From contig CANRAE010000002.1 of the NCBI GenBank assembly GCA_947628525.1, positions 1 to 46,103 of the forward strand: a stretch of 46,103 nucleotides of DNA, read 5' to 3'. Shown here piece by piece: positions 18,587-43,301 of the stretch (the first letter of the stretch is position 1; each line of letters opens with the position of its first letter). The stretch comes from an uncultured Bacilli bacterium (GTDB lineage Bacteria > Bacillota_I > Bacilli_A > RF39 > UBA660). A program made the position numbers and the translations under genes. Under the pieces are notes generated by a model. That model made no database searches, was not told the origin of the DNA, and saw only the letters and a list, made by a program, of their open reading frames with translations.

Positions 18587-19735
18587 ATGAGAGCAATTAA
18601 TAAAAAAATCGTTTTGATATATTTATTTCTCATTGTTTATGTAACTACAAGAGTTTTATCTGTTAAAATAAGCTCTTTAACTATTAGTAATGAGTTGAAC
18701 CTAGGAATTTGGGGTGCAGCCTTTCTCATTGCTTTTCTACTTACTAGACGAGACTATAATAGATATTTAGATCAATACGATAAAATTCAAACAACTTTCA
18801 TAGTAGTTGTTGGGTACTTGATGTTTTATTTCATTTTAGGTCTTTTTACAGGATATCAACACAACGCTTATTCATTAAGCTTAAGAGGTATTATTACCAA
18901 TACAATTCTGTTTATGCCTATAATTATATTTCAAGAATATATTAGACAAGTTTTAGTTAGTTATAGTAGTGGTAAAAACAAATGGATGGTACTAATCAGT
19001 GTATTGTACGTTATGATTAGTTTAAACTTTAATAGTTTATTTAATGATTTTCGAAATGCTGAGTCGGGATTTAAATATGCTTGTTCTGATTTAATCCCAT
19101 TAATAGCAAGAAATTTTGTCTTTACCTATTTAGCTTATATAAGCAGTTGTAAGCCAGTAATTCTTTATCGTATGTTAACGACAGCTGTTTCTATATATTT
19201 ACCTATAATTCCTAATATTAATTGGTTCTATACTGGATTATTTGGTATATTAGTTCCAATAATATTATATGTGCTTATCAATTATTCTCAATTGAAATTA
19301 GAGCGAAAGCTAACAAGGCAAGAAGAAAAAAAGAGCCGACCCATTTCTTATGTGCCAACCCTTATATTTATCTTTTTGATTGTTGGCTTTGTAGTAGGTT
19401 TTTTCCAATATCAACCAGTTGCAGTTGTCAGCGATAGTATGTTGCCTTTATTTGCAAGAGGTGATATGATTATCGTAGAGAAGCTAGATGAAGAAGGCAT
19501 CAATAACTTAAAAGTAGGCGACGTTATAAAGTTCCTAGCTGATGGTTATTATGTAATACATAGGATTTATGCTATTGAACAAACTGATGAAGGATTAATG
19601 TTTACCACAAAAGGAGACAACAACAATGCCCCTGATAGTAAAAAAGTTGCTGTTGATCAAATACAAGGTAAATATACATTCCATGTTAAATATGTTGGTT
19701 TTCCATCAGTTTGGTTAAGTGAAGCATTAAGATAA
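18587..19735 (+). CDS. Archaeal/ER-type signal peptidase I (SipW-like) fused to an N-terminal 8-TM domain of unknown family
   Basis: The C-terminal roughly 130 aa read VVSDSMLPLFARGDMIIVEK...VGDVIKF...YVIHRIYAI...FTTKGDNNNAPD...IQGKY. This matches the SipW/Sec11-type signature (Ser, His and Asp boxes). Residues 1-250 contain about 8 predicted TM helices, which canonical SipW (about 190 aa) lacks. Confidence 0.8.
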   Translation: MRAINKKIVLIYLFLIVYVTTRVLSVKISSLTISNELNLGIWGAAFLIAFLLTRRDYNRYLDQYDKIQTTFIVVVGYLMFYFILGLFTGYQHNAYSLSLRGIITNTILFMPIIIFQEYIRQVLVSYSSGKNKWMVLISVLYVMISLNFNSLFNDFRNAESGFKYACSDLIPLIARNFVFTYLAYISSCKPVILYRMLTTAVSIYLPIIPNINWFYTGLFGILVPIILYVLINYSQLKLERKLTRQEEKKSRPISYVPTLIFIFLIVGFVVGFFQYQPVAVVSDSMLPLFARGDMIIVEKLDEEGINNLKVGDVIKFLADGYYVIHRIYAIEQTDEGLMFTTKGDNNNAPDSKKVAVDQIQGKYTFHVKYVGFPSVWLSEALR

Positions 19736-19745
19736 GAGAGAAAAG

Positions 19746-21017
19746 GTGGTGTTGTTAGTGGATAATAAAGAAGATTGGTCATCATTAGATAAGGATGTTG
19801 GTGATGTACTTGAAAATATTCCGGTTGACAATATGGAATTTGATTCACTAGGGGAGTTGGATGAATCTAAGGATACTTTTTCAAACAAAGCTAGATCATT
19901 AAAAAAGGATGATGATAAAATGAATAACAAGAAAAAAGAAAATAATAACAATGGTTATAAGATTTCAAAGGACTTTTTCAAGATAATCGGATTAATAGTA
20001 TCAGGATTATTATTAGTTATATCTTTATGGATAATGACTAAATGTTTTACGCCAGCTCAGGAAATGACCAATTCTGTTTTAGCTTATAATACGACAAATC
20101 AAGCGGATTATAAAGTTCATTTATTAAAAAATGATTTTTATGAAACTGATACATTAGGTGTTGGCGAAATTGTCCCTGTAACATTTATTGATAAAATTGA
20201 AATTGATTTTTCAAGTTTCTTATCAGCTAATAAACAATTAAATATGGATTACAGTTATCATATTTCGGGCGTTATAACTGCTTCTAGTGATAATGGTGAT
20301 AACGAAGATGCTGGTGGTAAAATATGGACTAAAAATTATGAGTTCGTTGAACCAAAGAGCTTTTCTGAATCCAATGTTACGGGTTATGCAGTTCAAGAAA
20401 AAGTAATTATTGATTATCAACAATACAATGATTTAGTCAATCGTTATAAATTGCGTGCTGCTATTCCAATGGAAGCTGCTTTAACAGTAACTCTTACTGT
20501 TGATGCTAATAGTGTTGTTGAAAATGAGCCATTAACTGAAAGTACAGCGGTTAGTGTAACGATTCCATTATCGAAGTCAACTGTGCAAATCAAAACAAGT
20601 GGTGATGGTACTAATAGTAATTCGTTAGATGTAGTTGAAAAGATTGCTGCTAATAAAAATTTCGTTTTATTAGCCATTAGCGTTCTAGTATTTATAGCTT
20701 CATTAATAACTACGATTATGTTATTAAAGAGTTTAAGAAAAATGACTGTTGAACATTCTCTATTACTTAAATTTAATAAGATCATGCGTGATTATAATCA
20801 AATCATAATTGAGATAGAGGAATTACCAGAAGTTAGAAATGCAGCTGTCATTGAAGTTAAAACTTTCAAGGATATGCTAGATGTTCAAAAAGAATTACAT
20901 TTACCTATAATGTGTAAGAGAACTAAGACTGATGATGTTAAAGATAATTATTTCTATATAGTAAATCAAAATCAAATATTTAAATATCAAATGAATGATG
21001 AAAACGAAAAATTTTAA
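19746..21017 (+). CDS. Two-TM membrane protein, partner of the SipW cassette (possibly DUF5305-like)
   Basis: 423 aa. Layout: acidic N-terminal tail, TM1 (IIGLIVSGLLLVISLWIMT), a roughly 215-aa extracytoplasmic beta-rich segment, TM2 (FVLLAISVLVFIASLITTIMLL), and a roughly 95-aa cytoplasmic C-domain. It lies 10 nt after the peptidase gene. The start is ambiguous (GTG/TTG cluster at 19746-19758). The DUF5305 assignment is from memory and unverified. Confidence 0.6.
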   Translation: MVLLVDNKEDWSSLDKDVGDVLENIPVDNMEFDSLGELDESKDTFSNKARSLKKDDDKMNNKKKENNNNGYKISKDFFKIIGLIVSGLLLVISLWIMTKCFTPAQEMTNSVLAYNTTNQADYKVHLLKNDFYETDTLGVGEIVPVTFIDKIEIDFSSFLSANKQLNMDYSYHISGVITASSDNGDNEDAGGKIWTKNYEFVEPKSFSESNVTGYAVQEKVIIDYQQYNDLVNRYKLRAAIPMEAALTVTLTVDANSVVENEPLTESTAVSVTIPLSKSTVQIKTSGDGTNSNSLDVVEKIAANKNFVLLAISVLVFIASLITTIMLLKSLRKMTVEHSLLLKFNKIMRDYNQIIIEIEELPEVRNAAVIEVKTFKDMLDVQKELHLPIMCKRTKTDDVKDNYFYIVNQNQIFKYQMNDENEKF

Positions 21018-25186: not shown

Positions 25187-28100
25187 ATGGCTTCTTTGTT
25201 TAGTAAAGAGAGTTCGACGGAATTAAAAAAATATGAACGAATTATTACTGAAATGGAAAAATATGGATATTCTGGACGACGTCATCCTGTTAGTTCGGTA
25301 ATTAATAGTAGTGTTATTAATGAAAATACTGATTTACATGCCGAAACAATGAAGTTAAAAAAATATGTTGCAGGTAATCCTAGTAAACTTGAAAATATTT
25401 TACCACGTGCATGTGCCGTTATTTGCGAAGCGGCAAGAAGGCATGGGAAGCGACCTTATCCTGTACAAATATTAGGGGCGCTAGCTCTACATTATGGTAA
25501 TATTGCAGAAATGAAAACCGGTGAAGGTAAAACCATTACCGCAGTTGTTGCTGCTTATATAAATGCTTTAACCGGTAAAGGAGTACATATTACGACATCA
25601 AATGATTATCTGGCCAAAGAAGCTGGTTATAAAAAAATGGGACCTATATTTGAAGAAGCAGGACTTACAGTAGGTGTTGTTACTAATAGTAATGATCGCT
25701 CTAAAAATAGTTTAGAACAAAGAAGACGTGCTTATAATTGTGATGTAACTTATGGTTCAAGTGATGCGTTTGCTTTCGATTATTTATTTGATAATATTGC
25801 CAAATCACCTTCAAGAACAGTATTAAGAAAAGATAAGGTTGGTTTTGTCATTATTGATGAAGCTGATCAAATATTAGTTAATAATGCTACTACCCCTTTC
25901 CGCTTATCAGGTGATATTAACGCTCATCTTGCTAATAATAGAACAGAAGTATTAAAAGCTAGTGAACTGATGGCTCAATGGAAAAAACAACAAATGGAAA
26001 ATTTACAAAAAGCTGATGCTTTTGTATATCATTTATTTAGTAATAAAAGTGAATGCTTAGAAATTCCTACTAAAGAAGAATTTGATGAAATTTCGATCCC
26101 CGATAAAAAGTTAAATATAAATCATTCGCTTTATTCAGTTATTTATTCCAAAGCTAATGGTGTTACTTTAACAGAAAAAGGTCTTTTATTAGAATTTTAT
26201 TATTTCAATCGTGATAAAATTAATAATGTAATCAATCAAGAAAAATTAAAACAAGCTATTATAAAAAGCAAATCTTTTCAAGAGGGTAATAATCAAGATT
26301 ATATTATTGATAATCGTGGCAACATAACATTGAATCCACGTGGATTAGAACGAGCAATAAGAATTATTCCTTCAATAAATAAATTAAATCAAGAATTTAT
26401 TGAAGAGGCACAAAAAACAGGCTTTGATCATTATATAAATAATGCTTTAACGGCTTATTTTGTAAGGACAAATCAAAATGATTACACTATTCAAGATCAT
26501 GTTGATGAAAAAGGTAATATTAAGAAAAAAGTATCTTTAATTCAAGATGGTAGAACCCAAGAAGGGCGAGTATACTCCTTAGGATTACAGCAAGCTATTG
26601 AATTAAAGGAGCGAAGATTAAATCCGGGGTTAGCAATCGAATTATCAAAAGATAGTGATGAATTAGCTTCGATTACCCAACGAGCTTTTTATAATACATA
26701 TAGTAAAGTAAGTGGCATGACAGGAACGTCTGCTAGGAAAATATTTGATTCTATTTATGGCATGGAAACACTTGAAATACCAAGAAACAGTACTTATGAG
26801 TTAACACCAAAAGAGCAAGCGATTTTAGCAAGGACTAGAATCGATAAACCAGATGTCGTTTTTGCTACAGAAGAAGAGAAATTCATGGCTGTTATTAAAT
26901 CGATCGAAGATTCATATCATAAAGGACAACCTGTTTTAATTGGTACATTTTCTGACGAAGAATCGTTAAAATTGTATCGTGAAATTCGTAAAAGAGGACT
27001 TCCTTGTGAATTTTTAAATACAGAAAATAGTTATCGTGAAGCTGAAATTATATCCAAAGCTGGTATTAAAGGAGCTATTACTATTTCAACCCAAATGGCC
27101 GGGCGTGGGACAGATATTCAACTAGGTGGAGATCCAGAATTAATTATTAAAGAACAAATGCGAATAAAGGCCGAAAAAATGGCTGCTTTATATCTTAAAG
27201 ATAAAACTTATTCAAAAGAAATAAAAGATAAATATGTTCAAAGCGCTTTATCATATCTAGAAAAAAACAGGGATGATTTTATCAAAAGAGAGGGATTAAC
27301 AAAAGAATATTTTGCTTCTCGAAAAAATGAATTAGTTAAGGTTGGAGGTCTAAAAGTAATTGGTTATGGTCATTATCCAACCAAACGTAATGATGATCAA
27401 TTAAGAGGAAGAGCAGCTCGCCAAAATGATCCAGGAGTAACGGAATTTTATTCAAGCATCAAAGAAGATTTAGAACAAAAATTAAATATTCCTAGCTATA
27501 TAACTTCTAAATTACTAAAAAAAGGACTAAAAAAGGGACATCCTATTTCTGGCGCAGAAATAAGTAAAATAATTGCATCTGGGCAAGAGTTAATCGAAAG
27601 TTCATTTGAAGATATCCTTTATAATACCCAAGAACAAGATTATTTGATTTCTAATTTACGTACTAAAATATATGACCAACGTAAAAGAATTCTTTATGGC
27701 GATGAAAATATAGAAGATCATATGGAATATATAATCGAAAGTTCAGTCGAAAACTTAATTAATCGCCATGTTGCCAAAGATAATTACAATTTATCACCAA
27801 GAAAAAAGATTAAAGAATCTAATTTTAATAAAGGTGATTTCATTAAAGATGTAGGCGATATTTTAGGACTTGATATAAAATATTATTTTGATAATGACCA
27901 ATTTCAAACTTTTGGCGATCTAGAAAACTATTTGAAAAAGGCATCGCTTAACAAATACCATCGACTTAGACGCGAGAATGGAGATATAATTCAAGATACT
28001 AATGATAAATTAGAGGTACTTAGTACATTAGATCGAGCTTGGTCAATGTTTCAAGATCGCATAGAAGATGTAAATATTCAAAAAAATTTATATGCTATGG

Positions 28101-28429
28101 CTCAAAACGAGAAATTTGATGAAAAATATGAAATCAAAAAAACATATAATGCCTCACTTTGTAATTCTAAATTAGAAACAGTTAAAAGAATGTTTGGAAA
28201 ACAACTAACTATTGAACAACGATTAGATCAAGAAAAAGCTAAGAAAACTATGGATAATACTAACAGTTATTATGTTTTTGATAACCAAAAGAAGAAAAAT
28301 AATAAATTGCAAGTGCGTCTAAGCAAAATTGCTGCTGTTTTTTCTAATAGATATAGGTTGGCAAAAGTAAATAAGGAATTAAAAACATGTCTAGAAGAGG
28401 AAACGCTTAAAACTTCACATAAAAAGTAA
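25187..28429 (+). CDS. secA: Divergent SecA-family translocase ATPase (accessory SecA2-like paralogue, 1080 aa)
   Basis: The SecA motifs are present in order but altered: PYPVQILGALALHYGNIAEMKTGEGKT, GKGVHITTSNDYLA, DVTYGSSDAFAFDYLFDNI, IIDEADQILVNNATTPFRLSG, SGMTGTS, GQPVLIGT, ISTQMAGRGTDIQLGG and DDQLRGRAARQNDPG. The near-invariant [13 protein letters not shown] is replaced by HYPTKRNDDQLRGR. The PPXD region is expanded. There is no C-terminal zinc-binding tail. Confidence 0.85.
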   Translation: MASLFSKESSTELKKYERIITEMEKYGYSGRRHPVSSVINSSVINENTDLHAETMKLKKYVAGNPSKLENILPRACAVICEAARRHGKRPYPVQILGALALHYGNIAEMKTGEGKTITAVVAAYINALTGKGVHITTSNDYLAKEAGYKKMGPIFEEAGLTVGVVTNSNDRSKNSLEQRRRAYNCDVTYGSSDAFAFDYLFDNIAKSPSRTVLRKDKVGFVIIDEADQILVNNATTPFRLSGDINAHLANNRTEVLKASELMAQWKKQQMENLQKADAFVYHLFSNKSECLEIPTKEEFDEISIPDKKLNINHSLYSVIYSKANGVTLTEKGLLLEFYYFNRDKINNVINQEKLKQAIIKSKSFQEGNNQDYIIDNRGNITLNPRGLERAIRIIPSINKLNQEFIEEAQKTGFDHYINNALTAYFVRTNQNDYTIQDHVDEKGNIKKKVSLIQDGRTQEGRVYSLGLQQAIELKERRLNPGLAIELSKDSDELASITQRAFYNTYSKVSGMTGTSARKIFDSIYGMETLEIPRNSTYELTPKEQAILARTRIDKPDVVFATEEEKFMAVIKSIEDSYHKGQPVLIGTFSDEESLKLYREIRKRGLPCEFLNTENSYREAEIISKAGIKGAITISTQMAGRGTDIQLGGDPELIIKEQMRIKAEKMAALYLKDKTYSKEIKDKYVQSALSYLEKNRDDFIKREGLTKEYFASRKNELVKVGGLKVIGYGHYPTKRNDDQLRGRAARQNDPGVTEFYSSIKEDLEQKLNIPSYITSKLLKKGLKKGHPISGAEISKIIASGQELIESSFEDILYNTQEQDYLISNLRTKIYDQRKRILYGDENIEDHMEYIIESSVENLINRHVAKDNYNLSPRKKIKESNFNKGDFIKDVGDILGLDIKYYFDNDQFQTFGDLENYLKKASLNKYHRLRRENGDIIQDTNDKLEVLSTLDRAWSMFQDRIEDVNIQKNLYAMAQNEKFDEKYEIKKTYNASLCNSKLETVKRMFGKQLTIEQRLDQEKAKKTMDNTNSYYVFDNQKKKNNKLQVRLSKIAAVFSNRYRLAKVNKELKTCLEEETLKTSHKK

Positions 28430-28539
28430 ATTTTTGTCAAATAATAAAATAATCAACGAATAATTCTTGTAATTTTGACGGTATAGTTTTATGGTTATAA
28501 TGTAATAATTGTTGAGTTACATAAATAAGGAGGATAATA

Positions 28540-29079
28540 ATGAAAAATAAACAAGTAATAATGGTATCTTTGCTGGCTTTTATCGGAATTTTAGCAGTTG
28601 CTTATGCGGCATTTAATACGCAATTGAAAGTTTCTGGTACTATCAATGCATCAGGTACATTTAAAGTAACTTTTACTAATAATACTACTGATGGACAACC
28701 ATCTTGTGTAGGGACAAAAGTAGGGGCAGATACACCTAGTGGTACTGTTGATGTTAAAGATGCCTCATCAACAGCAACTCTTACTGTTAAATTATATACA
28801 CCTGGTGATCAAGTTGTTTGTACTTTACCGGTAAAGAATAGTGGTACTTTAAAAGCTAAATTTGATTCTGTTAGTGTATCTAATAGCTTAACAGCTTCAT
28901 CAAAACCAATTTCAGTAGCAGCAGAATCTCAAACAGCAGCAGCTGGTGTAATTGCAGCCGGAGCTAAATCAAATATTACTGTTACTGTAAAATATAATTA
29001 CGATGGTACAAGCCAACCAACAGAAGTAGATCTTAGTAAGACCTTTACAGTAATAGCTAATTATTCACAAGCAATATAA
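28540..29079 (+). CDS. Secreted TasA/camelysin-like protein with a SipW-type signal peptide (paralog P3)
   Basis: MKNKQVIMVSLLAFIGILAVAYAAFNTQLKVSGTINA; TPGDQVVCTLPVKNSGTLKAKF; C-terminal TFTVIANYSQAI. RBS AAGGAGG. Thr/Ser/Ala-rich with two conserved Cys. Confidence 0.75.
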   Translation: MKNKQVIMVSLLAFIGILAVAYAAFNTQLKVSGTINASGTFKVTFTNNTTDGQPSCVGTKVGADTPSGTVDVKDASSTATLTVKLYTPGDQVVCTLPVKNSGTLKAKFDSVSVSNSLTASSKPISVAAESQTAAAGVIAAGAKSNITVTVKYNYDGTSQPTEVDLSKTFTVIANYSQAI

Positions 29080-29100
29080 TGAAAAGAAAGGGATTTTAAA

Positions 29101-29622
29101 ATGAAAAGAAATAATAATAATATAATAATGATAGCATTAGTTGTAATTGCTCTTGTGATGGGAATTGCTTATGCAGCTTTTGCTACGACTTTAAATATTA
29201 ATGGTACAGCCGAAATTAAATCAACATGGGATATTAGATTTGAGGCAGGTACTTGTACTCCTACTGTAACAAAAGATTCTGGGAAAGCATCTAGTGGTAC
29301 TATTAGTGTACAAGGAACAACGGCCACTGTTACGGCTAGTATGGCTTCTCCTGGTGATAAGCTTAGTTGTACTGTTACCGCTAAAAATTATGGAACATTA
29401 GCAGCTAAAAGAACATCTTGGACTGTTACATCGCCAACGCAATTCTTTAACGTTACAGCAACACCGGCAACTACAGGTACTGTAACACCATTAGCAGCTA
29501 AAGCCGGTGATACCATAGCATCTGAAACTTTAACTATTACGATCGAATATTTATCAACCGTAACTACTCAACCAACACAACAAACTTTTACAGGCGTAGC
29601 TACATATGCCCAAGCATTGTAA
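29101..29622 (+). CDS. Secreted TasA/camelysin-like protein with a SipW-type signal peptide (paralog P4)
   Basis: MKRNNNNIIMIALVVIALVMGIAYAAFATTLNINGTAEI; SPGDKLSCTVTAKNYGTLAAK; C-terminal TFTGVATYAQAL. It lies 21 nt after P3 and has the same Cys pair as P3. Confidence 0.75.
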   Translation: MKRNNNNIIMIALVVIALVMGIAYAAFATTLNINGTAEIKSTWDIRFEAGTCTPTVTKDSGKASSGTISVQGTTATVTASMASPGDKLSCTVTAKNYGTLAAKRTSWTVTSPTQFFNVTATPATTGTVTPLAAKAGDTIASETLTITIEYLSTVTTQPTQQTFTGVATYAQAL

Positions 29623-29645: not shown

Positions 29646-29786
29646 ACAAAAAAATAGTCCAAATCAAAAAGATTTTAAAATAAATTAAAATATAGTGCTT
29701 ATAAAATATGACTACTAACTTATTTTGCTTTACTAAACATTTAATAGATGATAGAATTTAATGTGTGTAAAAAGGTTGGTGCGAAT

Positions 29787-30929
29787 ATGAAACAATGTTG
29801 TGCTTGTAATAAGAACTCTTTTTTCCCAGAAATGTTAGGAGATATAGTTCTTTGTAAAAAATGCTTAATAAAAATAGATGGATTGATGTGGAAATATCGT
29901 GATTTTGAAAAAGGCGAGGACTTTGATAAATATAGATATAAAGCTATAACCTTAGCCAATAAAAATCAATTTCCAGCATCGGTTATAGATGGAATAAATG
30001 CTTATTTTGATCAAAAACAATCTAAATTAAAAGAATGTGCAGCATGTGGAAAAAGACGACAAAAAACTACTAATGCTAATAATTTTATCTTTTGTGAAGA
30101 ATGTTTTTCTGATATAGCAGAATGCTGGAAAAGAAAAAAATATTTTAATAGGGAAGAGTTATACAACGAAAGAGATAAAGTCTTAAAAATAGCCAAAGAA
30201 AAAAATTTCCCCAAAGAATTTATTGAACAAATAAGTCCTTATTTTGAAGATAAAGTAGAAAAGAATTGGATTAGTACACTAGATGGTAATAAAGGCCAAA
30301 CTATTGAATTTTATAATGACTATTTGACTATTAAAACAAATAAAAATTTTAATGAAGAAGAAATGCAATCGCAATTTAATAAATTAAATTCTAAAATTAA
30401 TATAAACAGTGAGGACTTAAAATCGTTTAAAACAATTGGAAAAGAAATAGGAAAAGAACTAATTAGTGATGTTATTCCTATACCGCGAGCATTTAAATCT
30501 ATGAAAATTTTAGATATGGCTGGCGATAAAATGATAAAACATTTAGATAATTCTAAAACAGTTTCAATTAAAAACTATGTAAAAGACGGTTTAAGAAAAG
30601 TTTATTATAAAGATTGTTTCAATACTAATCTGCTTTTTCGTAATGAAGAAGGTATAACGGTTGGTGCATTATTAATCATAACTAATAATGCTAATGTGCC
30701 AGATTTATTGTTTTTCTTTGATAAAAGTAAGATTAATAAAATCAAAAAAATCCGAAAAATATTGGAAGAAGAAATGGAGAAAGCTGAAAAAAAAGTTGAT
30801 AATGACAAAAAAGCAACTGGTAATCAACATTTTGCAAAACAAATAAGAGAACTAAAAGGATTACTAGATGATGGAATTATTACCCAAGAAGAATTTGATG
30901 CTAAAAAGAAGCAATTACTAGATTTATAA
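29787..30929 (+). CDS. SHOCT-domain protein with a duplicated N-terminal CxxC zinc-ribbon module
   Basis: The C-terminus IRELKGLLDDGIITQEEFDAKKKQLLDL is a SHOCT signature. Two roughly 80-aa N-terminal repeats each carry CxxC...CxxC (CCACNK...CKKC and CAACGK...CEEC). Start at ATG 29787 (the track start 29748 has no RBS). Confidence 0.7.
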   Translation: MKQCCACNKNSFFPEMLGDIVLCKKCLIKIDGLMWKYRDFEKGEDFDKYRYKAITLANKNQFPASVIDGINAYFDQKQSKLKECAACGKRRQKTTNANNFIFCEECFSDIAECWKRKKYFNREELYNERDKVLKIAKEKNFPKEFIEQISPYFEDKVEKNWISTLDGNKGQTIEFYNDYLTIKTNKNFNEEEMQSQFNKLNSKININSEDLKSFKTIGKEIGKELISDVIPIPRAFKSMKILDMAGDKMIKHLDNSKTVSIKNYVKDGLRKVYYKDCFNTNLLFRNEEGITVGALLIITNNANVPDLLFFFDKSKINKIKKIRKILEEEMEKAEKKVDNDKKATGNQHFAKQIRELKGLLDDGIITQEEFDAKKKQLLDL

Positions 30930-33898: not shown

Positions 33899-36800
33899 AT
33901 GAAAAATACTTTAAAAAGAATTGTATGTACGGTTATTATTACTGGCTTTGCTTTGATTTTGTTAAAGCCTTTTGTTAATTATTCCATAGTAGCATATGCT
34001 ATTTCGCGTGAAGACAGTTATATTTATTTAACGGATCTATGGGATAGTAATAAATTATTAACCAAAGAAAGTAGTTGGAAAGATGCCAGGGCTCTTCGAA
34101 TCAATCAAAATGAACCAGGTGATCTCATTTCTCTTAATATCGAAGGACAACAAAAATATTTTTTGAATGGATTATTTGCTCATGCTCGAAGTACTTTGAT
34201 TTTTGATATAAGTGAATATACGCAAAAAGGTTTCGATACTTTCTCTTCTTATATAGGAGTAGATACTTATGCCAAAGCTAATGGGAATGGGGTACAGTTT
34301 ACTATTTCAGCATCAGTTGATAATAAACAATGGGTTGTATTAGAACAGCCAACGACTATTTTTAAAGGTAATACTGATGCCAAAGAAATTATCGTTCCTA
34401 TTGAAGGATATAATTATTTAAAACTATATGTTAGTGAAATTAACAATAATAATAGTAGTGATCATGCGGTATATGCTAATGCAATGCTATTTGATAAAGA
34501 TAAATATACACCAAGAACTGATACAAAAGTTAGTTGGATTAGTGATTTAAATACCTATGATGAAGAATTAAAAAAATATAGCGATCTTACCATTTTAAGC
34601 CATGATGATTTAGAAATGAAATTATTACAAAGAACACTTGTGAAACGAATGGGGTACCAAATTATTCAAGCTTATGCCACAAGTGATGATGCAAATAAAG
34701 TTGAGACATTACATTGGCTATTTACTGATAAAGAACGTTTAAAAACTTATATTACTGGTGGTGAGCCATTAGGTAACTATGTTAATTCTTTGAATGTTTT
34801 AACGAAATTGTATCAATCACACAAAGATGATTTAGTTAATGATAAATATACTCCTAAACAACGTGAAGTTTTTTTCAAAATGATGGTTGCTATTTCTCTA
34901 ACACATTCAGGAACGGTTGCATTATGGACTACTGGTGCTAACAATACTTTGGTAGTATCTGATCCAGTCAAACGTTATGAAGCTTTTAAAAATTTATATG
35001 TTGAAGAGAATTTACCGATAAAATATGAACAAACTTTTGCTGCGGATACTTTTGAGTCATTAACGGTTGAAGAAATGCGTTGGGTTGTTGATGCTCGTTT
35101 GAGTGATGAAGAAATTCCTTGGTTAAATTGGTATAGCAGTCATTTAGAAAATACTAAATATAGTGGTCGTAATGGTATGGATCCTTATACTTATATTTGG
35201 TATGATGATAGTTTTGATTGGCGTTACACTGATCCTAAATATTATGAAGCTAATTCGACGTATTGTTCGCCGGATATAAAAAATAAATTTGTAGCTGGAT
35301 ACGAACGTGGTGCAAGTTGTAATGATATATATAAACTTGATGTATGGGGTATAGTAAGCAATACTCCAACTAAGCCAAGATTATGGGCTATTTGGGAAGA
35401 AGATGGGGTATGTGGAGCTATCTCTAAGACTGGTGAAAATCTTAATAATGCTTATGGGAAAGTAGCAGCCGTAACAAGGCAACCAGCTCATGCAGCATAC
35501 TTGATTCAGACTAAAACTAAAAACGAAGATGGGACTTATATATCTACTTGGAGCATTGGTAATGATGTCCGTGGTTGGGCTTTATCTAGTGGTACCGAAA
35601 AAGGGGAAAGGCTTCCTTTGAATTGGGGAACGACAACTAATGATTATGCCTCAAATTATAATGGCAGTTATGTCATTTTAGCACAACGTGCACTAGATGA
35701 CTTCGCTTCTTATCAAAAAGCTTTAGAATATACTTTTATTGCTGATATGTATGAAGAAGATTTAATGAAGCAACGTGAAATATATCGCCAAATTGTTGGT
35801 ATAGCTCTTACCCAAGAAAGTACTACTGTTAAAAATGAAGGTGGTATACAATATTTTAATTTAGATGGATGGTATGGCTTAATTCAAACTTATTTAAAAG
35901 ATGATCATATGACATCATTAGATTATTACAAATTAAGTTATGAAATTATGGCTAACTTAGATGAGTTTCCATTAGCTATGAATGATATGTTAAATCTTAT
36001 TAATGCTAAACTTAATGATCATCATAAATTTGTAATTGATAGTGCTTATTACAAAATATTAACTGAATTATCCAAAGTACCAAATAATAGTGATAAATAT
36101 TTACAAGGACAAGCAGTTAGACAAGTTGCTCAATATTTACTTGGTAATAAAGAAGAAAATGTTAAATTCTCATTTAGTGGGGAGAATGCTAATAAAATAG
36201 TATTAGCTACCGCTCAGCCTTTTGAATATTCGCTAAATTATTCATATAATCCTGAAACAAAAGAAGTATTTGGTGATTGGATTCAAGTAACTGAGGGCAA
36301 TATGGCAGATTTAACCAATCAATTAAATCAAATTAATGCCACTAATGATATAGTTGTTCATATTCTTGGTGATGGCAATAGAGAACCTACTAGTAATAGC
36401 GTTATAACCATTAATATTGAAAAAGGAATAACGCCAAAGAATTTATATGCTAATGATTTAGAAAATCAAGTAATAGGTACTACTTCCAATATGGAATGGC
36501 AAATAATTAGTGAAGATAATAAGAGTGTTAGTAATAATAAATGGATAAAGTTTCAAGAAAAATTACCTGATTTATCAAAAATGGCAACCGTTTTAGTTCG
36601 TGATGGGGCTCACGATACTTATTTACCAAGTGATTATGTGGCATTATCATTTGAAGAGGCTGATGAAGTTGATTTAACTAAGGTTTATGTTCCTATTTCT
36701 CGTCTTAAAGTTACTGCTTCTTCAAGGCAAAATAATAATGAACATGAACTAAAAGCTATTGATGGTAACGCTAATACTTATTGGCATAATTTATGGAGTG

Positions 36801-38641
36801 GTGCTGATCAGGATAAATGGATTCAATTAGAAATTACTGATGAAGATCCTATATCACTTTCCAAAATTGAATATATGCCAAGGCAAGATTCAGGAACCAA
36901 TGGTATTTTTACCAAAGTTAAATTAGAAGTTAGTTTAACTGGTGAAAAAGATAGTTGGACGACCGTAGATGACAATATTATTTGGGCTAAGGATAAATCA
37001 ACTAAGACTTATATTTTAGATACACCAACGTTAGCTAAATATGTAAGATTAACAGCGATTGAATCGGCTGGTAATTTTGCATCAGCAGCAATGATTAATT
37101 TATTTGAAAATACAACTACTAGAATCTCTGTTAATGATTTAGCAGTAAGTTATGTAAAAAGTGGCTTTATTTATGATGGAATGGCTAAGGAACCAGAGGT
37201 TACTGTTAGATACAATAATCAATTATTAATTTTAAATGAGGATTATAAAATAGAATATTTGCATAATATTAATGCTGGTATGGCCCAAATATCGCTTAAA
37301 GGTATGGGCAAATATACTGGTAAAAAAGAGTTTGAATTTAAAATAGATAAAGCTTTACAACCATTAGAAGTACCAGCCAAAGAAATGTTTGTAGATTCTA
37401 GTGTTACGCATTTGATATATGTTCCTTTACCAGAAGACTGGTGGTGGGAAGATTATGAATTTCCATTGCAACCTGGAAAAACAGTTAATGTTAAAGCGAT
37501 ATATTATGGTGATGATCGCAATAATTATGAAATAACAGAAACCATGGTTGCTATAACTCAAAGTAAGGGTAATAGTCCCCAAGTACAAATTGCTGATAAG
37601 GCTAAACTTTCCTTTGATATTGCAACCGAAGATGCTATTAATTATGATTATTTTAAAAATTTACTTATAATTTCTGATCTTGAAGATGACCAAAAGCAAA
37701 AAGAATTAACCGTTACTTTAAATCAAGAATTAACTAATTGGGATGGTTTCACTTGGAATCATATAGGAACATTTTGTGTAGGATACACAATTACTGATAG
37801 TGATGAAAATAAGGTTGATTATACAATTGTATTTACTTTGTTTAATTCAAAAATACCTTCTGTTGAAATTAATGAAGAAAATTTTGCGGTTGATATAAAA
37901 GAAGCAATTTATAATGGTAGTGCACTTACACCTAAAATTACAATTCGTGATGCATATCATCATATTTTGACTGAGGATATTGATTATGAAATTGTAAGCT
38001 ATAAAAACAATATAAATGCTGGATTTGCTAGTGTAACGATTAAAGGTATAGGTCTTTATTCTAAGGAGATGACCATTAATTTTAAAATAGCAAAAGCTAG
38101 TGTTCCTAGTGAAAAAATTAATGATACAATGACTGTATCTTATGAGACCTCAACATTAAATGATATATCTTTACCTGTTGGTTGGGTTTGGGATAATACT
38201 TCTACTAAACTTCAAGAAGGAGAAAATAAAGTTAAAATTATTTTTGTGGGTGATCAAAATCACGAAAGATATGAAATGGAAATAGTAGTAGTAAGAGAAC
38301 AAATGAAGAACACTAAACAAAGTAAATATCAGCCAGATCTTACTAATCCTAGTAATGAGCTAGATCCAAAAGAAAGTTCTAATTCTAATGATATGCCAAA
38401 TAATAACGATGAATTAGATGAACAAGAAATAGATTTAACCAAGGATGATGAGGTTTTAGATGATAATCAAGAACAATCTAGATTAGATGATTCTAGCCAA
38501 CTAGATAGCAATACAGTAGTAAAAAAAGATAGTAGTTCGCATCAAGTTTATTATTTATATATTATTTTCTTTGTAGCTGTTATTTTATTGATTATATTGA
38601 TATTAAAATTAAAAAGTATAAAAAGTAAAAATAATATTTAA
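33899..38641 (+). CDS. Large cell-surface protein: signal peptide, NPCBM-like module, unknown core, F5/8 type C (discoidin) domain, Ig-like repeats, C-terminal TM anchor
   Basis: NPCBM-like: IYLTDLW...NGLFAHARSTLIFDI...FSSYIGVD...GVQFTI...DHAVYANAML. Discoidin: VTASSRQ...AIDGNANTYWHN...WIQLEI...IEYMPRQD. Two repeats of YDGMAKEPEVTV...NINAGMAQISLKGMGKYTG..EFEFKI type. The C-terminus has an acidic low-complexity linker, then VYYLYIIFFVAVILLIILIL plus KLKSIKSK. No LPXTG. Confidence 0.85.
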   Translation: MKNTLKRIVCTVIITGFALILLKPFVNYSIVAYAISREDSYIYLTDLWDSNKLLTKESSWKDARALRINQNEPGDLISLNIEGQQKYFLNGLFAHARSTLIFDISEYTQKGFDTFSSYIGVDTYAKANGNGVQFTISASVDNKQWVVLEQPTTIFKGNTDAKEIIVPIEGYNYLKLYVSEINNNNSSDHAVYANAMLFDKDKYTPRTDTKVSWISDLNTYDEELKKYSDLTILSHDDLEMKLLQRTLVKRMGYQIIQAYATSDDANKVETLHWLFTDKERLKTYITGGEPLGNYVNSLNVLTKLYQSHKDDLVNDKYTPKQREVFFKMMVAISLTHSGTVALWTTGANNTLVVSDPVKRYEAFKNLYVEENLPIKYEQTFAADTFESLTVEEMRWVVDARLSDEEIPWLNWYSSHLENTKYSGRNGMDPYTYIWYDDSFDWRYTDPKYYEANSTYCSPDIKNKFVAGYERGASCNDIYKLDVWGIVSNTPTKPRLWAIWEEDGVCGAISKTGENLNNAYGKVAAVTRQPAHAAYLIQTKTKNEDGTYISTWSIGNDVRGWALSSGTEKGERLPLNWGTTTNDYASNYNGSYVILAQRALDDFASYQKALEYTFIADMYEEDLMKQREIYRQIVGIALTQESTTVKNEGGIQYFNLDGWYGLIQTYLKDDHMTSLDYYKLSYEIMANLDEFPLAMNDMLNLINAKLNDHHKFVIDSAYYKILTELSKVPNNSDKYLQGQAVRQVAQYLLGNKEENVKFSFSGENANKIVLATAQPFEYSLNYSYNPETKEVFGDWIQVTEGNMADLTNQLNQINATNDIVVHILGDGNREPTSNSVITINIEKGITPKNLYANDLENQVIGTTSNMEWQIISEDNKSVSNNKWIKFQEKLPDLSKMATVLVRDGAHDTYLPSDYVALSFEEADEVDLTKVYVPISRLKVTASSRQNNNEHELKAIDGNANTYWHNLWSGADQDKWIQLEITDEDPISLSKIEYMPRQDSGTNGIFTKVKLEVSLTGEKDSWTTVDDNIIWAKDKSTKTYILDTPTLAKYVRLTAIESAGNFASAAMINLFENTTTRISVNDLAVSYVKSGFIYDGMAKEPEVTVRYNNQLLILNEDYKIEYLHNINAGMAQISLKGMGKYTGKKEFEFKIDKALQPLEVPAKEMFVDSSVTHLIYVPLPEDWWWEDYEFPLQPGKTVNVKAIYYGDDRNNYEITETMVAITQSKGNSPQVQIADKAKLSFDIATEDAINYDYFKNLLIISDLEDDQKQKELTVTLNQELTNWDGFTWNHIGTFCVGYTITDSDENKVDYTIVFTLFNSKIPSVEINEENFAVDIKEAIYNGSALTPKITIRDAYHHILTEDIDYEIVSYKNNINAGFASVTIKGIGLYSKEMTINFKIAKASVPSEKINDTMTVSYETSTLNDISLPVGWVWDNTSTKLQEGENKVKIIFVGDQNHERYEMEIVVVREQMKNTKQSKYQPDLTNPSNELDPKESSNSNDMPNNNDELDEQEIDLTKDDEVLDDNQEQSRLDDSSQLDSNTVVKKDSSSHQVYYLYIIFFVAVILLIILILKLKSIKSKNNI

Positions 38642-40973: not shown

Positions 40974-43289
40974 ATGTATACTGAATATGAAGAAAAAAAA
41001 GGATTTCCAATAAGAGATTTCCTAATTAAACTAGTATTAATTGTAATATTTGTTTTACTTTTAATGTGGTTATTACCAATACCAAATATGAAAGGTATAA
41101 ACAATACTATATTTAATGCTAATGTTCAAACTATGAAAGATGCGGCTATTAATTATTTTACGACTGAAAGATTACCGCAAAAAGTAGGGGAAAAGAAGAC
41201 TTTAACTTTGGAAGAAATGTTAGAGCTTAAACTTTTATTACCTTTTACTGATAAGAATGGTGAGACATGTGATGTAGATGAGTCTTATGTTACGATTGAA
41301 AAATTGGAGACAGAGTATTTACTTACTGTTCATTTGAAATGTAAAGATGAAGAAGATGAAATTGTCGTTTATTTAGGATGCTATTCATATTGTACAACCG
41401 ATGTTTGTGAAAAGAAAGAAGAGAAAAAAGACGATGATAAAAATCCAGGTAACAATGGTGGCGGTGATGTTGCTGTTGTTGGTGGACCTTCTTGTAGTTT
41501 AACTATTGCCTCAGGTAAAGCTGGTGAAAACGGCTGGTATGTAGGTGATGTCGTAGTTAAGTTTAAGAGTAAGACGGCTACTAATAATGCTAAAATTACT
41601 AATTATGGTATAGGATTATCTAATAACTATGATGGCAAAGATTCTTATACTGTTAATAAAGACGGGGTTACAACTGTTTATGGATTTGTTAAAGATTCTA
41701 ATGGTAAAACAGCAGTTTGTAGTATTGATGTAAAAAGAGATACAGTAGCTCCATCATGTGGCTTAACCGTTTTAAGCGGAAGTGTTGGATCTGATGGATC
41801 ATATATAAATGATGTTGTTGTTGGTTTCTCATCTAGAACTGATGCTACTAGTGGTGTTAAACAATTTGGAATGGGTACAACAGCTAAGCCAAATTACAAC
41901 AGTAACGATCGTTATACTGTTAATACTAATGGTTCGACAACTGTTTATGGTTACGTTAAAGATGCTGCTGGACATACTAAAACTTGTGATTTAACTGTTA
42001 AACGAAATGCTTCTAAAAATGATTCTGTACCATCTTGTAACCTTGAAATTAAAAGTGGTAATTTAGGAACTAATAATTGGTATGTTTCTAATGTAACTGT
42101 TGGATTTAAATCTAAAACAACAACTAATGGTGCTACTATTACTTCATTTGGAATTGGAACAGCACCAGTATATAACAATTCATCAACCTATGAATTGAAA
42201 AATGATGGAATATATGTTGTTAAAGGATATGTAAAAGATTCTAATGGTCATACAGCTACTTGTAGTATTACCGTAAAAAGAGATGCTACTAAACCTAATT
42301 GTAATTTAGTTGTATTAAGTGGTACTAAGAATAATTCTGGTAACTATACAAGTAATGTTGTAGTAGGATTTAGAAATAGAACTGATGCTACTAGTGGTGT
42401 TGGAGCTTATGGTATATCTGCTGGTAATAATCCAACATATAATAGTAGTGATAGAATAACTATAACTAATAATGGAACACATACAATTCGTGGATATGTA
42501 AAAGATAATGCTGGTAATACTAATACTTGTGATATAACTATTACTAAAGTTGCCTTAACATATGAGTACGAATATATGAAACATATAGATGCTACTTATA
42601 GTAATTGGGGAAATTGGACAACGAAAGAGTATGATCCAAGTAATGCTCCTAAATGGGGAATATCAAGTGATGGTTTATCTGAGACAAAAGATCTAGGTAA
42701 ATCAACAACCTATAAATATAGAAATGGATCTCCAATATATGTTAATAGATTAATGGAATCTGATAGTGTAGCTGTTAAAACATGTGCTGGATATAATTAT
42801 TATCGTAGTCAAACAACAACGACTAAAACTTATGCTATAAAAGTTGCTGATGGTTGGGTATTTCAACAATATGTTCAAATTCCTAGCTCAACAGTTCCAA
42901 CTGATACTTTAATGTATAAATATGAATTAGTTAATATTGAGTCTGACGAATGTAATGGTGGATGTACTACAACCCCAGGATATACTTTATGGAAAAAATA
43001 TTCACGTAACGTTTCAACGGTAACAGCCGAAGATACAATTGTTTCATCAAATGGTGTAACAGTTAAATGTAGTAATTATGAACAAAAACCTATAAAAGTA
43101 TTTAATACTTTGGAAATAATTGCTGGATATGAAAAAATTCGTGTTGAAGATACTGTTTATAAATATCAAATTAGATATCGTACTTTATTAAATGCTGCTT
43201 ATAATGATATTAAATGGAGTACTTATAATGATTTAACATTAATTTCACAAGGATATAAAATGACGGGTAATTATAGATTGGTTGGTTAG
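40974..43289 (+). CDS. N-terminally anchored surface protein with a pilin-like head and four Cys-bracketed Ig-like repeats
   Basis: 771 aa. ATG lies 2 nt after the smr stop, with RBS GGGGG. N-terminus MYTEYEEKKGFPIRDFLIKLVLIVIFVLLLMWLLPIPN. Four roughly 87-93-aa repeats span aa 172-525. The C-terminal roughly 245 aa are unassigned. Confidence 0.75.
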   Translation: MYTEYEEKKGFPIRDFLIKLVLIVIFVLLLMWLLPIPNMKGINNTIFNANVQTMKDAAINYFTTERLPQKVGEKKTLTLEEMLELKLLLPFTDKNGETCDVDESYVTIEKLETEYLLTVHLKCKDEEDEIVVYLGCYSYCTTDVCEKKEEKKDDDKNPGNNGGGDVAVVGGPSCSLTIASGKAGENGWYVGDVVVKFKSKTATNNAKITNYGIGLSNNYDGKDSYTVNKDGVTTVYGFVKDSNGKTAVCSIDVKRDTVAPSCGLTVLSGSVGSDGSYINDVVVGFSSRTDATSGVKQFGMGTTAKPNYNSNDRYTVNTNGSTTVYGYVKDAAGHTKTCDLTVKRNASKNDSVPSCNLEIKSGNLGTNNWYVSNVTVGFKSKTTTNGATITSFGIGTAPVYNNSSTYELKNDGIYVVKGYVKDSNGHTATCSITVKRDATKPNCNLVVLSGTKNNSGNYTSNVVVGFRNRTDATSGVGAYGISAGNNPTYNSSDRITITNNGTHTIRGYVKDNAGNTNTCDITITKVALTYEYEYMKHIDATYSNWGNWTTKEYDPSNAPKWGISSDGLSETKDLGKSTTYKYRNGSPIYVNRLMESDSVAVKTCAGYNYYRSQTTTTKTYAIKVADGWVFQQYVQIPSSTVPTDTLMYKYELVNIESDECNGGCTTTPGYTLWKKYSRNVSTVTAEDTIVSSNGVTVKCSNYEQKPIKVFNTLEIIAGYEKIRVEDTVYKYQIRYRTLLNAAYNDIKWSTYNDLTLISQGYKMTGNYRLVG
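41487..42548 (+). repeat. Four diverged tandem coding repeats (about 260-280 bp each) in an A-B-A-B pattern
   Basis: A units: SCSLTIASGKAGENGWYVGDVVVKFKSKTATNNAKITNYGIG and SCNLEIKSGNLGTNNWYVSNVTVGFKSKTTTNGATITSFGIG. B units: SCGLTVLSGSVGSDGSYINDVVVGFSSRTDATSGVKQFGMG and NCNLVVLSGTKNNSGNYTSNVVVGFRNRTDATSGVGAYGIS. Each unit ends in G.VKD..G.T..C.I.VKR. Confidence 0.8.
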
Positions 43290-43301
43290 AAGGAGATATG
43301 T

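Follow-up and report, generated by a model that had tools for sequence, protein, structure and literature searches.

Does a stretch of core chromosome from an uncultured member of the Bacilli encode the parts of an extracellular fibre? The question was raised by 46,103 nt of DNA (GenBank assembly GCA_947628525.1, contig CANRAE010000002.1, positions 1 to 46,103 of the forward strand; hereafter, the window), in which a first-pass annotation had noticed four dispersed secreted proteins, here called P1 to P4, and described them as TasA-like. We conclude, with a probability of roughly 0.7, that the window holds the genes of an AbpX-like fibre system (TasA superfamily), based on Sec export, cleavage by a dedicated signal peptidase, and donor-strand polymerisation. 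The roles of the individual subunits are held with lower confidence than the system itself. The locus would be a new example, bacterial and gut-associated, of a recently described type of system, with a variant basic P3/P4 pair.

AbpX-like proteins are a clade of the TasA superfamily distributed in Thermoproteota, Bacillota, and Chloroflexota, and AbpX itself assembles by N-terminal donor-strand complementation involving three calcium ions (bioRxiv 10.64898/2026.01.04.697558). In its donor strand (W2-I12), position +2 is a conserved aromatic residue and position +4 is acidic, its isoelectric point (pI) is ~4, and its N-terminal extension is unstructured in monomer predictions. Besides minor subunits and tip proteins, the AbpX-like loci encode a dedicated ten-helix signal peptidase and a DUF5305 protein that is probably an accessory subunit of this enzyme (10.64898/2026.01.04.697558).

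P1 to P4 are real paralogues and are secreted. Their open reading frames (ORFs) begin where the first-pass annotation had placed them. Pairwise BLASTP linked P1 to P2 (E = 3e-19), P3 to P4 (E = 1e-18, 36% identity), and P2 to P3 (E = 2e-8), and a family hidden Markov model (HMM) run against all window ORFs of at least 70 aa picked up these four and no other copy, which bears out the earlier claim of a four-member family. The leaders look Sec-type, with a basic n-region and a hydrophobic core of ~15-18 residues. The junction pattern [AGS][YFW][AGS]x[FLWY]xxx[LIV]x[IVL]xG was found in the window only in P1 to P4, with 0.035 matches expected from shuffled ORFs; the junction first proposed opened with an additional Gly, which is true of P1 and P4 only. 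The two other signatures proposed for the family, a (P)GD/KD...KN.GT(I/L).AK motif and a domain-terminal aromatic-x-Q (DYVQ, NYSQ, TYAQ, WEQY), were each observed in all four proteins. Assuming cleavage after (A/G)-Y-(A/S), mature P3 would begin with A-F-N-T-Q-L-K-V-S-G-T-I and mature P4 with A-F-A-T-T-L-N-I-N-G-T-A. A type IV pilin or class III signal peptide was rejected, as the long hydrophobic core precedes an A-x-A-type site and no G↓F-type prepilin site follows a short basic leader. A camelysin-like protease was also considered; its metal-binding motif was not seen by eye, no dedicated search having been made.

Table 1. Features of the putative fibre system in the window.
Feature	Coordinates	Strand	Length	Description and proposed role
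P1	5859-7463	+	534 aa	Signal peptide, AbpX-like N-terminal domain (~25-175), Listeria-Bacteroides repeat, ALK/LTK-type glycine-rich C-terminus; candidate display/tip subunit
P2	18054-18554	+	166 aa	Acidic AbpX-like protein; mature pI 4.1 (4.10), 14.3% Asp+Glu; first gene of the peptidase operon; candidate minor/nucleating subunit
Signal peptidase	18587-19735	+	382 aa	Archaeal/endoplasmic reticulum (ER)-type (SipW-type) signal peptidase I; multi-helix N-terminal membrane domain and C-terminal catalytic domain
DUF5305 protein	19746-21017	+		Membrane protein, hydrophobic segments 80-98 and 306-324; proposed signal peptidase accessory subunit (role from literature)
P3-P4 promoter	28475-28501	+		Candidate, read from sequence: TTGACG (28475-28480), TATAAT (28496-28501), 15-nt spacer
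P3	28540-29079	+	179 aa	AbpX-like protein; mature pI 8.6 (8.56), 38.5% Thr+Ser+Ala, two Cys; candidate major fibre subunit
P4	29101-29622	+	173 aa	AbpX-like protein, start 21 nt past P3; mature pI 8.0, 46.6% Thr+Ser+Ala, two Cys; candidate partner/minor subunit

The gene context provides the strongest evidence for an AbpX-like fibre system. In the window, P2, a multi-helix signal peptidase, and a DUF5305 protein are encoded in this order, with the P2 stop codon 32 nt before the peptidase start and the DUF5305 gene starting 10 nt past the peptidase. The C-terminal 130 residues of the peptidase matched TIGR02228 (E = 5.8e-29; 101 bits, cut-off 51.85), with S-x-S-M-x-P, H325-R326, and GDNN among the invariant residues of the enzyme. 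Its score against the Bacillus SipW equivalog model was 72 bits, under the cut-off of 190. This is the only S26 peptidase found in the window and is archaeal/SipW-type by TIGR02228, in agreement with the single SipW-type enzyme first reported. The N-terminal ~240 residues form a multi-helix membrane domain with no Pfam match; the whole enzyme has nine hydrophobic segments, and its homologues have eight to ten. In this domain (residues 1-240, 18587-19300), the polar residues D65, K66, Q68, Q116, E117, R120, and N147 are invariant in homologues only 37% identical. The downstream protein matched PF17231 (DUF5305) with E = 9e-18 (64.9 bits, cut-off 29).

We compared this arrangement with 80 metagenomic peptidase loci, 60 of which encode a full-length multi-helix enzyme. 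A family member was present in 36 of the 60, typically 20-140 nt upstream, and DUF5305 was located immediately 3' of the peptidase in 49; both counts are lower bounds because many contigs are short. Neither a family member nor DUF5305 occurred at the loci of short, complete peptidases (166-273 aa, L090-L101; 0/12). Since one relative has, in addition, an ordinary S26 peptidase beside rplS, the multi-helix enzyme is an extra, dedicated one. The P2-type arrangement is orthologous in L007, L008, and L022. The nearest relatives show the order hisS, aspS, P2-like, peptidase, DUF5305, and a 672-691-aa P1-like protein, and further along secA, [P3-like, P4-like] twice, and ppdK. In L014, L018, and L019, four paralogues lie directly 5' of the peptidase and DUF5305. 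Closer inspection of L014 and L019 showed that their four paralogues include a P3/P4-like pair that is two-Cys, Thr/Ser/Ala-rich, and near-neutral to basic. Two features of the TasA superfamily, a Sec-type signal and a locus with its own archaeal/ER-type signal peptidase I, are thus present in the window, and so is the combination typical of the AbpX-like clade, a peptidase with about ten helices and a DUF5305 gene.

The family as a whole is large, and the subfamilies close to the window proteins are rare. Among 5.8 billion proteins, we found 22, 15, and 10 clusters close to P3, P4, and P2, respectively, all metagenomic save one entry labelled 'Bacilli bacterium'. With a profile of P1 to P4 and their relatives, we retrieved 9,125 representative clusters at a threshold of E ≤ 1e-3, of which 4,308 also passed E ≤ 1e-10. 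Stand-alone proteins of 160-200 aa account for roughly half of the best matches; in the others, the domain forms the N-terminus of 250-2,300-aa proteins, in which it is followed, for example, by Listeria-Bacteroides repeats, ALK/LTK glycine-rich domains, DUF6273, and carbohydrate-binding modules. At species level, the genomes in which the family occurs are uncultured gut bins assigned to Bacilli, Erysipelotrichaceae, or 'Firmicutes'; the samples came from goat, rabbit, rumen, and Hadza humans.

Curated models gave no direct assignment to TasA. For the shared domain, no Pfam or NCBIfam model exceeded its cut-off, except that P1 narrowly passed that of CARDB (26 bits, cut-off 22.7); the C-terminal domains of P1 exceeded theirs. 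P3 scored 13.2 bits against Pfam PF12389 Peptidase_M73 (cut-off 22.5), P4 scored 13 bits against NCBIfam NF046066 TasA (cut-off 450), and no window protein matched the BsaA model TIGR04090 at E ≤ 1. With hhalign, the similarity to TasA reached a probability of 34% over 34 columns only. Direct membership in the TasA family was rejected on these grounds.

The similarity to AbpX was greater. In a PDB sequence search, the best match of the four-protein profile was AbpX (9sj2; E = 0.023), aligned from mature residue 3. Using the AbpX sequence from the preprint's supplement, hhalign aligned our 60-sequence profile (A4) with full-length AbpX at a probability of 90.7% over 141 columns. Because much of this value stems from the signal peptide and the junction, we relied upon a search started from mature AbpX, conducted in a family-enriched database of 2,949 ORFs and proteins. 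A single phmmer search retrieved 12 proteins at E ≤ 1e-3, the best with 36.6 bits and the donor strand Y-W-T-E-T-L. Eleven of the 12 belong to the family by the HMM (E ≤ 1e-5), six of them with E values of 1e-30 to 1e-41. The second round of a jackhmmer iteration recruited P3 (8.9e-8), P4 (1.9e-7), and P1 (1.3e-6), and the third added P2; of the 329 proteins on the final list, 319 were family members. As the database is small and family-enriched, these E values describe a chain of similarity, not absolute significance. The results indicate detectable sequence homology to AbpX, a characterised member of the TasA superfamily. The term 'TasA-like' is therefore appropriate at the level of the superfamily, in that mature AbpX recruits all four proteins; they are not of the TasA family proper, and AbpX is their nearest characterised relative.

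The register of the N-terminal strand also agrees with AbpX. Conservation in the family is highest at the junction and in this strand: in the 60-member alignment, Y occupies position -2 in 56 sequences, L position +6 in 58, and G position +10 in 59, and I/V at +8 is nearly invariant. Alternating hydrophobic residues (F2/L6/V8/I12) fall in the register of AbpX (W2/L6/L8/I12), with which positions 2/6/8/12 of mature P3 and P4 agree. With cleavage as assumed above, mature position 2 is Phe in P1, P3, and P4 and Leu in P2 (family: Phe 36/60, Leu 22/60); the aromatic residue characteristic of the AbpX-like clade would thus be present in all but P2. At mature position 4, P3 and P4 have Thr, P1 has Ser, and P2 has Gln. 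Subunits with the canonical AbpX donor strand (YWTETL, LFSDNL, LFSESL, FFSDSL) are encoded near multi-helix peptidases in L037 (8977-9579, - strand) and L040 (5714-7511). Being aromatic at +2 and acidic at +4, these strands bridge AbpX and the window family.

The hydrophobic core of the leader is rather long and very well conserved, as would be expected if it remained uncleaved and served as a membrane anchor, with P1 to P4 as tethered surface domains and the peptidase acting on other substrates. Yet in 56-60 of the 60 relatives the core leads into a small-x-small site, (A/G)-Y-(A/S), and this junction aligns with TYA↓QW of AbpX, a site that was predicted by the depositors and from which mature AbpX was expressed. 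The peptidase gene, moreover, adjoins the family in many genomes. We consider this explanation highly improbable.

Structure prediction with AlphaFold2 (AF2) is consistent with a putative N-terminal donor strand. Full-length P3 was predicted as an all-beta protein with a predicted local distance difference test score (pLDDT) of 87. Mature P3 formed a beta-sandwich (pLDDT 92.6; predicted template modelling score 0.84), with the first 19 residues unstructured. The top-ranked Foldseek match in the PDB, both with and without the signal peptide, was the TasA fibre 8aur (E = 0.012 and 0.066; TM-score 0.30-0.35).

A number of results weigh against an AbpX-like fibre. Neither of the two Foldseek searches gave a match at E ≤ 1e-3, and the Sulfolobus thread, FimG, and unrelated immunoglobulin (Ig)-like domains followed 8aur closely. 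The first-round bit scores from mature AbpX were modest (17-37), in the small, family-enriched database described above. When the signal peptide was removed from AbpX, hhalign gave probabilities of 16-45% with scores of 26-31; the highest score of 40 shuffled mature AbpX sequences against the A4 profile was 22.4. The narrow P2-subfamily profile (A7) and the broad A4 profile did not find AbpX in the PDB sequence search, and hhalign of the P2-subfamily profile against AbpX found nothing, so that detection of AbpX depends strongly on profile composition. P3 and P4 lie ~9 kb from the peptidase, with housekeeping genes between. The calcium-binding acidic residue at +4 is present in one of the 60 family members and in none of P1 to P4. 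Different from the AbpX clade, with its low pI (~4) and ~15% Asp+Glu, P3 and P4 are basic and Thr/Ser/Ala-rich; P2 alone fits. Sub-threshold matches to generic Ig-like models were at least as frequent among the 60 relatives as those to Peptidase_M73, TasA, or BsaA. The giant proteins P0034 (5970 aa) and P0046 (4372 aa) contain 21-30 tandem copies of the last two thirds of the domain (~profile positions 77-166). The core sandwich is thus also a generic Ig-like repeat, and homology claims from that part alone call for caution.

These observations raise the main alternative, in which P1 to P4 would be monomeric surface or secreted proteins of the Ig-like (CARDB/DUF11) type that share only the special signal peptide and the peptidase, and the likeness to AbpX and TasA would reflect a generic sandwich motif. 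The sub-threshold matches among the 60 relatives are compatible with this explanation: DUF7507 (36), HYDIN-type Ig (34), DUF11 (32), CARDB (21), and choice_anch_D (43), versus Peptidase_M73 (26; best E = 6e-4), BsaA (8; best E = 0.0012), and TasA (6). The CARDB match of P1, the Foldseek ranking, and the tandem repetition of the domain core in giant proteins point in the same direction. However, the family was recruited by the mature AbpX sequence, its most conserved part is the junction and an N-terminal strand in the AbpX register, and AF2 places this strand outside the fold. The peptidase/DUF5305 operon is the one described for fibre systems, and tandem arrays of three to six small paralogues, as seen in relatives, are typical of pilin loci. 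We therefore regard the monomeric Ig-like explanation as unlikely and prefer an AbpX-like fibre system.

P3 and P4 are the variant members of this putative system. Their Asp+Glu content is 5-6%, and they are basic outliers in a family with a median pI of 4.4, in which 49 of 60 members are below 5. Cys56 and Cys94 of P3 share alignment columns with Cys52 and Cys90 of P4 and are kept in orthologues, which supports the earlier observation of two equivalent Cys. Disulfides are suggested by the mature-domain Cys count, which is even (0, 2, or 4) in 46 of 47 relatives. Conserved Cys94 of P3 faces a non-Cys residue of AbpX in the profile alignment.

The first-pass annotation had called the pair highly expressed-looking and had noted AAGGAGG-class ribosome-binding sites and a candidate promoter of its own. 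AAGGAGG is indeed located 8 nt 5' of the P3 ATG; P4 has the weaker AAAGGGA only. The promoter hexamers occur at the positions claimed, with the 15-nt spacer, a pair that a consensus promoter scan omits because it allows 16-18-nt spacers only. Codon usage gave no mark of unusually high expression for P3 or P4, so the description as highly expressed now refers to the P3 ribosome-binding site and the candidate promoter. In L001, which is a close relative, both P3-like genes are again preceded by a TTGAC(G/C) box and an AAGGAGGA ribosome-binding site, and the P3-like/P4-like pair is conserved and tandemly duplicated (180/173 aa and 168/173 aa; L001 8620-11048). The first of these pairs is followed by a hairpin-plus-T-run terminator, and the second is preceded by a promoter-like site, TTGACG-17-TATACT.

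Directly 5' of P3 and P4 lies secA (25187-28429). Its 1080-aa product has a ~220-residue insertion in the DEAD motor domain, with residues 45-517 mapping to profile positions 33-284. The same arrangement is present in L001, with a 1093-aa SecA, and is absent from the other family-carrying lineages. We rejected SecA as a dedicated exporter, given that the adjacency is found in close relatives only (L001-L003, with SecA also at the end of L007). Between P4 and ppdK, positions 29748-30929 encode a 393-aa protein in which CxxC...CxxC modules are repeated and a SHOCT domain forms the C-terminus; L001 has no gene there.

P1, the longest of the four, matched the family HMM with E = 8.9e-55. Its Pfam domains are PF12810 (E = 6.5e-45; residues ~275-532) and Flg_new (E = 3.6e-6), and its N-terminal domain has a pI of 5.35. 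The same architecture recurs in P0041, P0057, and P0075.

Taken together, the data allow us to propose how the system might operate. P1 to P4 would be made with Sec-type signal peptides, which the archaeal-type signal peptidase I and the DUF5305 protein would remove after (A/G)-Y-(A/S). This cut would expose the conserved amphipathic N-terminus A-F-x-T-x-L-x-(I/V)-x-G-T. Lying outside its own beta-sandwich, the N-terminal strand may enter the sandwich of a neighbour by donor-strand complementation, giving non-covalent extracellular fibrils. P3 and P4, a conserved bicistronic pair, would form the fibre body, which is probably disulfide-stabilised and probably does not need the calcium site that AbpX forms with its acidic residue at mature position 4. 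P2, acidic and encoded in the peptidase operon, may act as a minor or nucleating subunit, and P1 may join the fibre by the shared N-terminal module and display its glycine-rich domain. The biological function would be adhesion or matrix formation. TasA-type fibres hold biofilms together.

Fibres of this kind could alternatively belong to the spore surface or an extrasporal matrix instead of a vegetative biofilm or adhesion structure. TasA was first found in association with spores, and sporulation proteins are encoded near the family in relatives (CotE in L004, SSPI in L008). Against this, the loci show no evident sporulation promoter or regulator, the candidate P3-P4 promoter is sigma-A-like, and no relation to Ena or F-ENA was seen in any search. 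A spore location thus seems quite improbable, and we retain a vegetative adhesion or matrix fibre as the preferred reading.

Among characterised systems, the AbpX fibrils of Pyrodictium abyssi (PDB 9sj2, 9rhp) share a number of features with the window proteins: a Sec signal ending in T/A-Y-A; an amphipathic mature N-terminal strand in like register, with the aromatic +2 in P1, P3, and P4; and a compact (here predicted) sandwich of ~140-160 residues. P2 additionally has the low pI (4.1) and ~14% Asp+Glu. At the level of the locus, both include a TIGR02228-type peptidase with about ten membrane helices, a DUF5305 gene, extra minor subunits, and large proteins with a shared N-terminal module. 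The window differs in that its genes are spread over 24 kb among housekeeping genes, whereas the AbpX genes form one cluster. A further difference is that the window showed neither an LPXTG nor an SLH cell-wall anchor.

The TasA/TapA/SipW system of Bacillus subtilis likewise combines a secreted matrix subunit with an adjoining dedicated archaeal-type signal peptidase, and TasA has a comparable junction (x-W/Y-A↓A-F), a PGD...N.G.L motif, and a C-terminal aromatic-x-Q. However, the window subunits are ~100 residues shorter, the peptidase differs from SipW in its ~240-residue multi-helix N-terminal domain, and DUF5305 takes the place of TapA. The haloarchaeal Tafi (TafA/TafE pilins, TafD peptidase, TafG DUF5305) follows the same locus logic, with pilin paralogues, a dedicated peptidase, and a paired DUF5305 protein thought to assist it. 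Donor-strand assembly has been shown by cryo-electron microscopy for the Tafi of Natrinema. Tafi is likened to the window by this locus logic; it differs in its mostly Tat-type signals and in TafD, which has four membrane segments. BsaA of Clostridium perfringens (TIGR04090) is also a SipW-dependent Firmicutes matrix pilin, but has another locus architecture.

The window as a whole is core chromosome of ~29% GC, with mraW, a penicillin-binding protein gene, def, recD2, alaS, hisS, lexA, xerC/D, secA, and ppdK. The 1580-aa product of positions 33899-38641 combines NPCBM and F5/8 type C (discoidin) domains and probably binds glycans, as a surface protein or enzyme. At 40974-46004, two large ORFs lie side by side (771 and 900 aa); they showed no convincing Pfam match and one short HYR fragment only. 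At the matching position, L001 has two unannotated ORFs of like size (756 and ~880 aa), the likeness being one of size and place.

What would such a system mean for these bacteria? It is possible, though doubtful, that P3 and P4 represent a separate, non-acidic AbpX-like branch, a disulfide-stapled Thr/Ser-rich heteropolymer (possibly glycosylated) without a calcium site, and that the N-terminal module is a general 'plug-in' by which uncultured gut Bacilli mount varied C-terminal adhesin domains, including the ALK/LTK-type glycine-rich ones, on one fibre. Because the shared domain is not covered by any Pfam or NCBIfam model, annotation of gut genomes labels the family 'hypothetical'. A curated family model would be useful but incremental, and the same applies to knowing whether the basic P3/P4 type polymerises without calcium. 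AbpX-like systems were described recently, mainly from extremophilic archaea; similar machinery would be present here in uncultured Bacilli and Erysipelotrichaceae-like bacteria of the animal and human gut, where the fibres could mediate aggregation or attachment.

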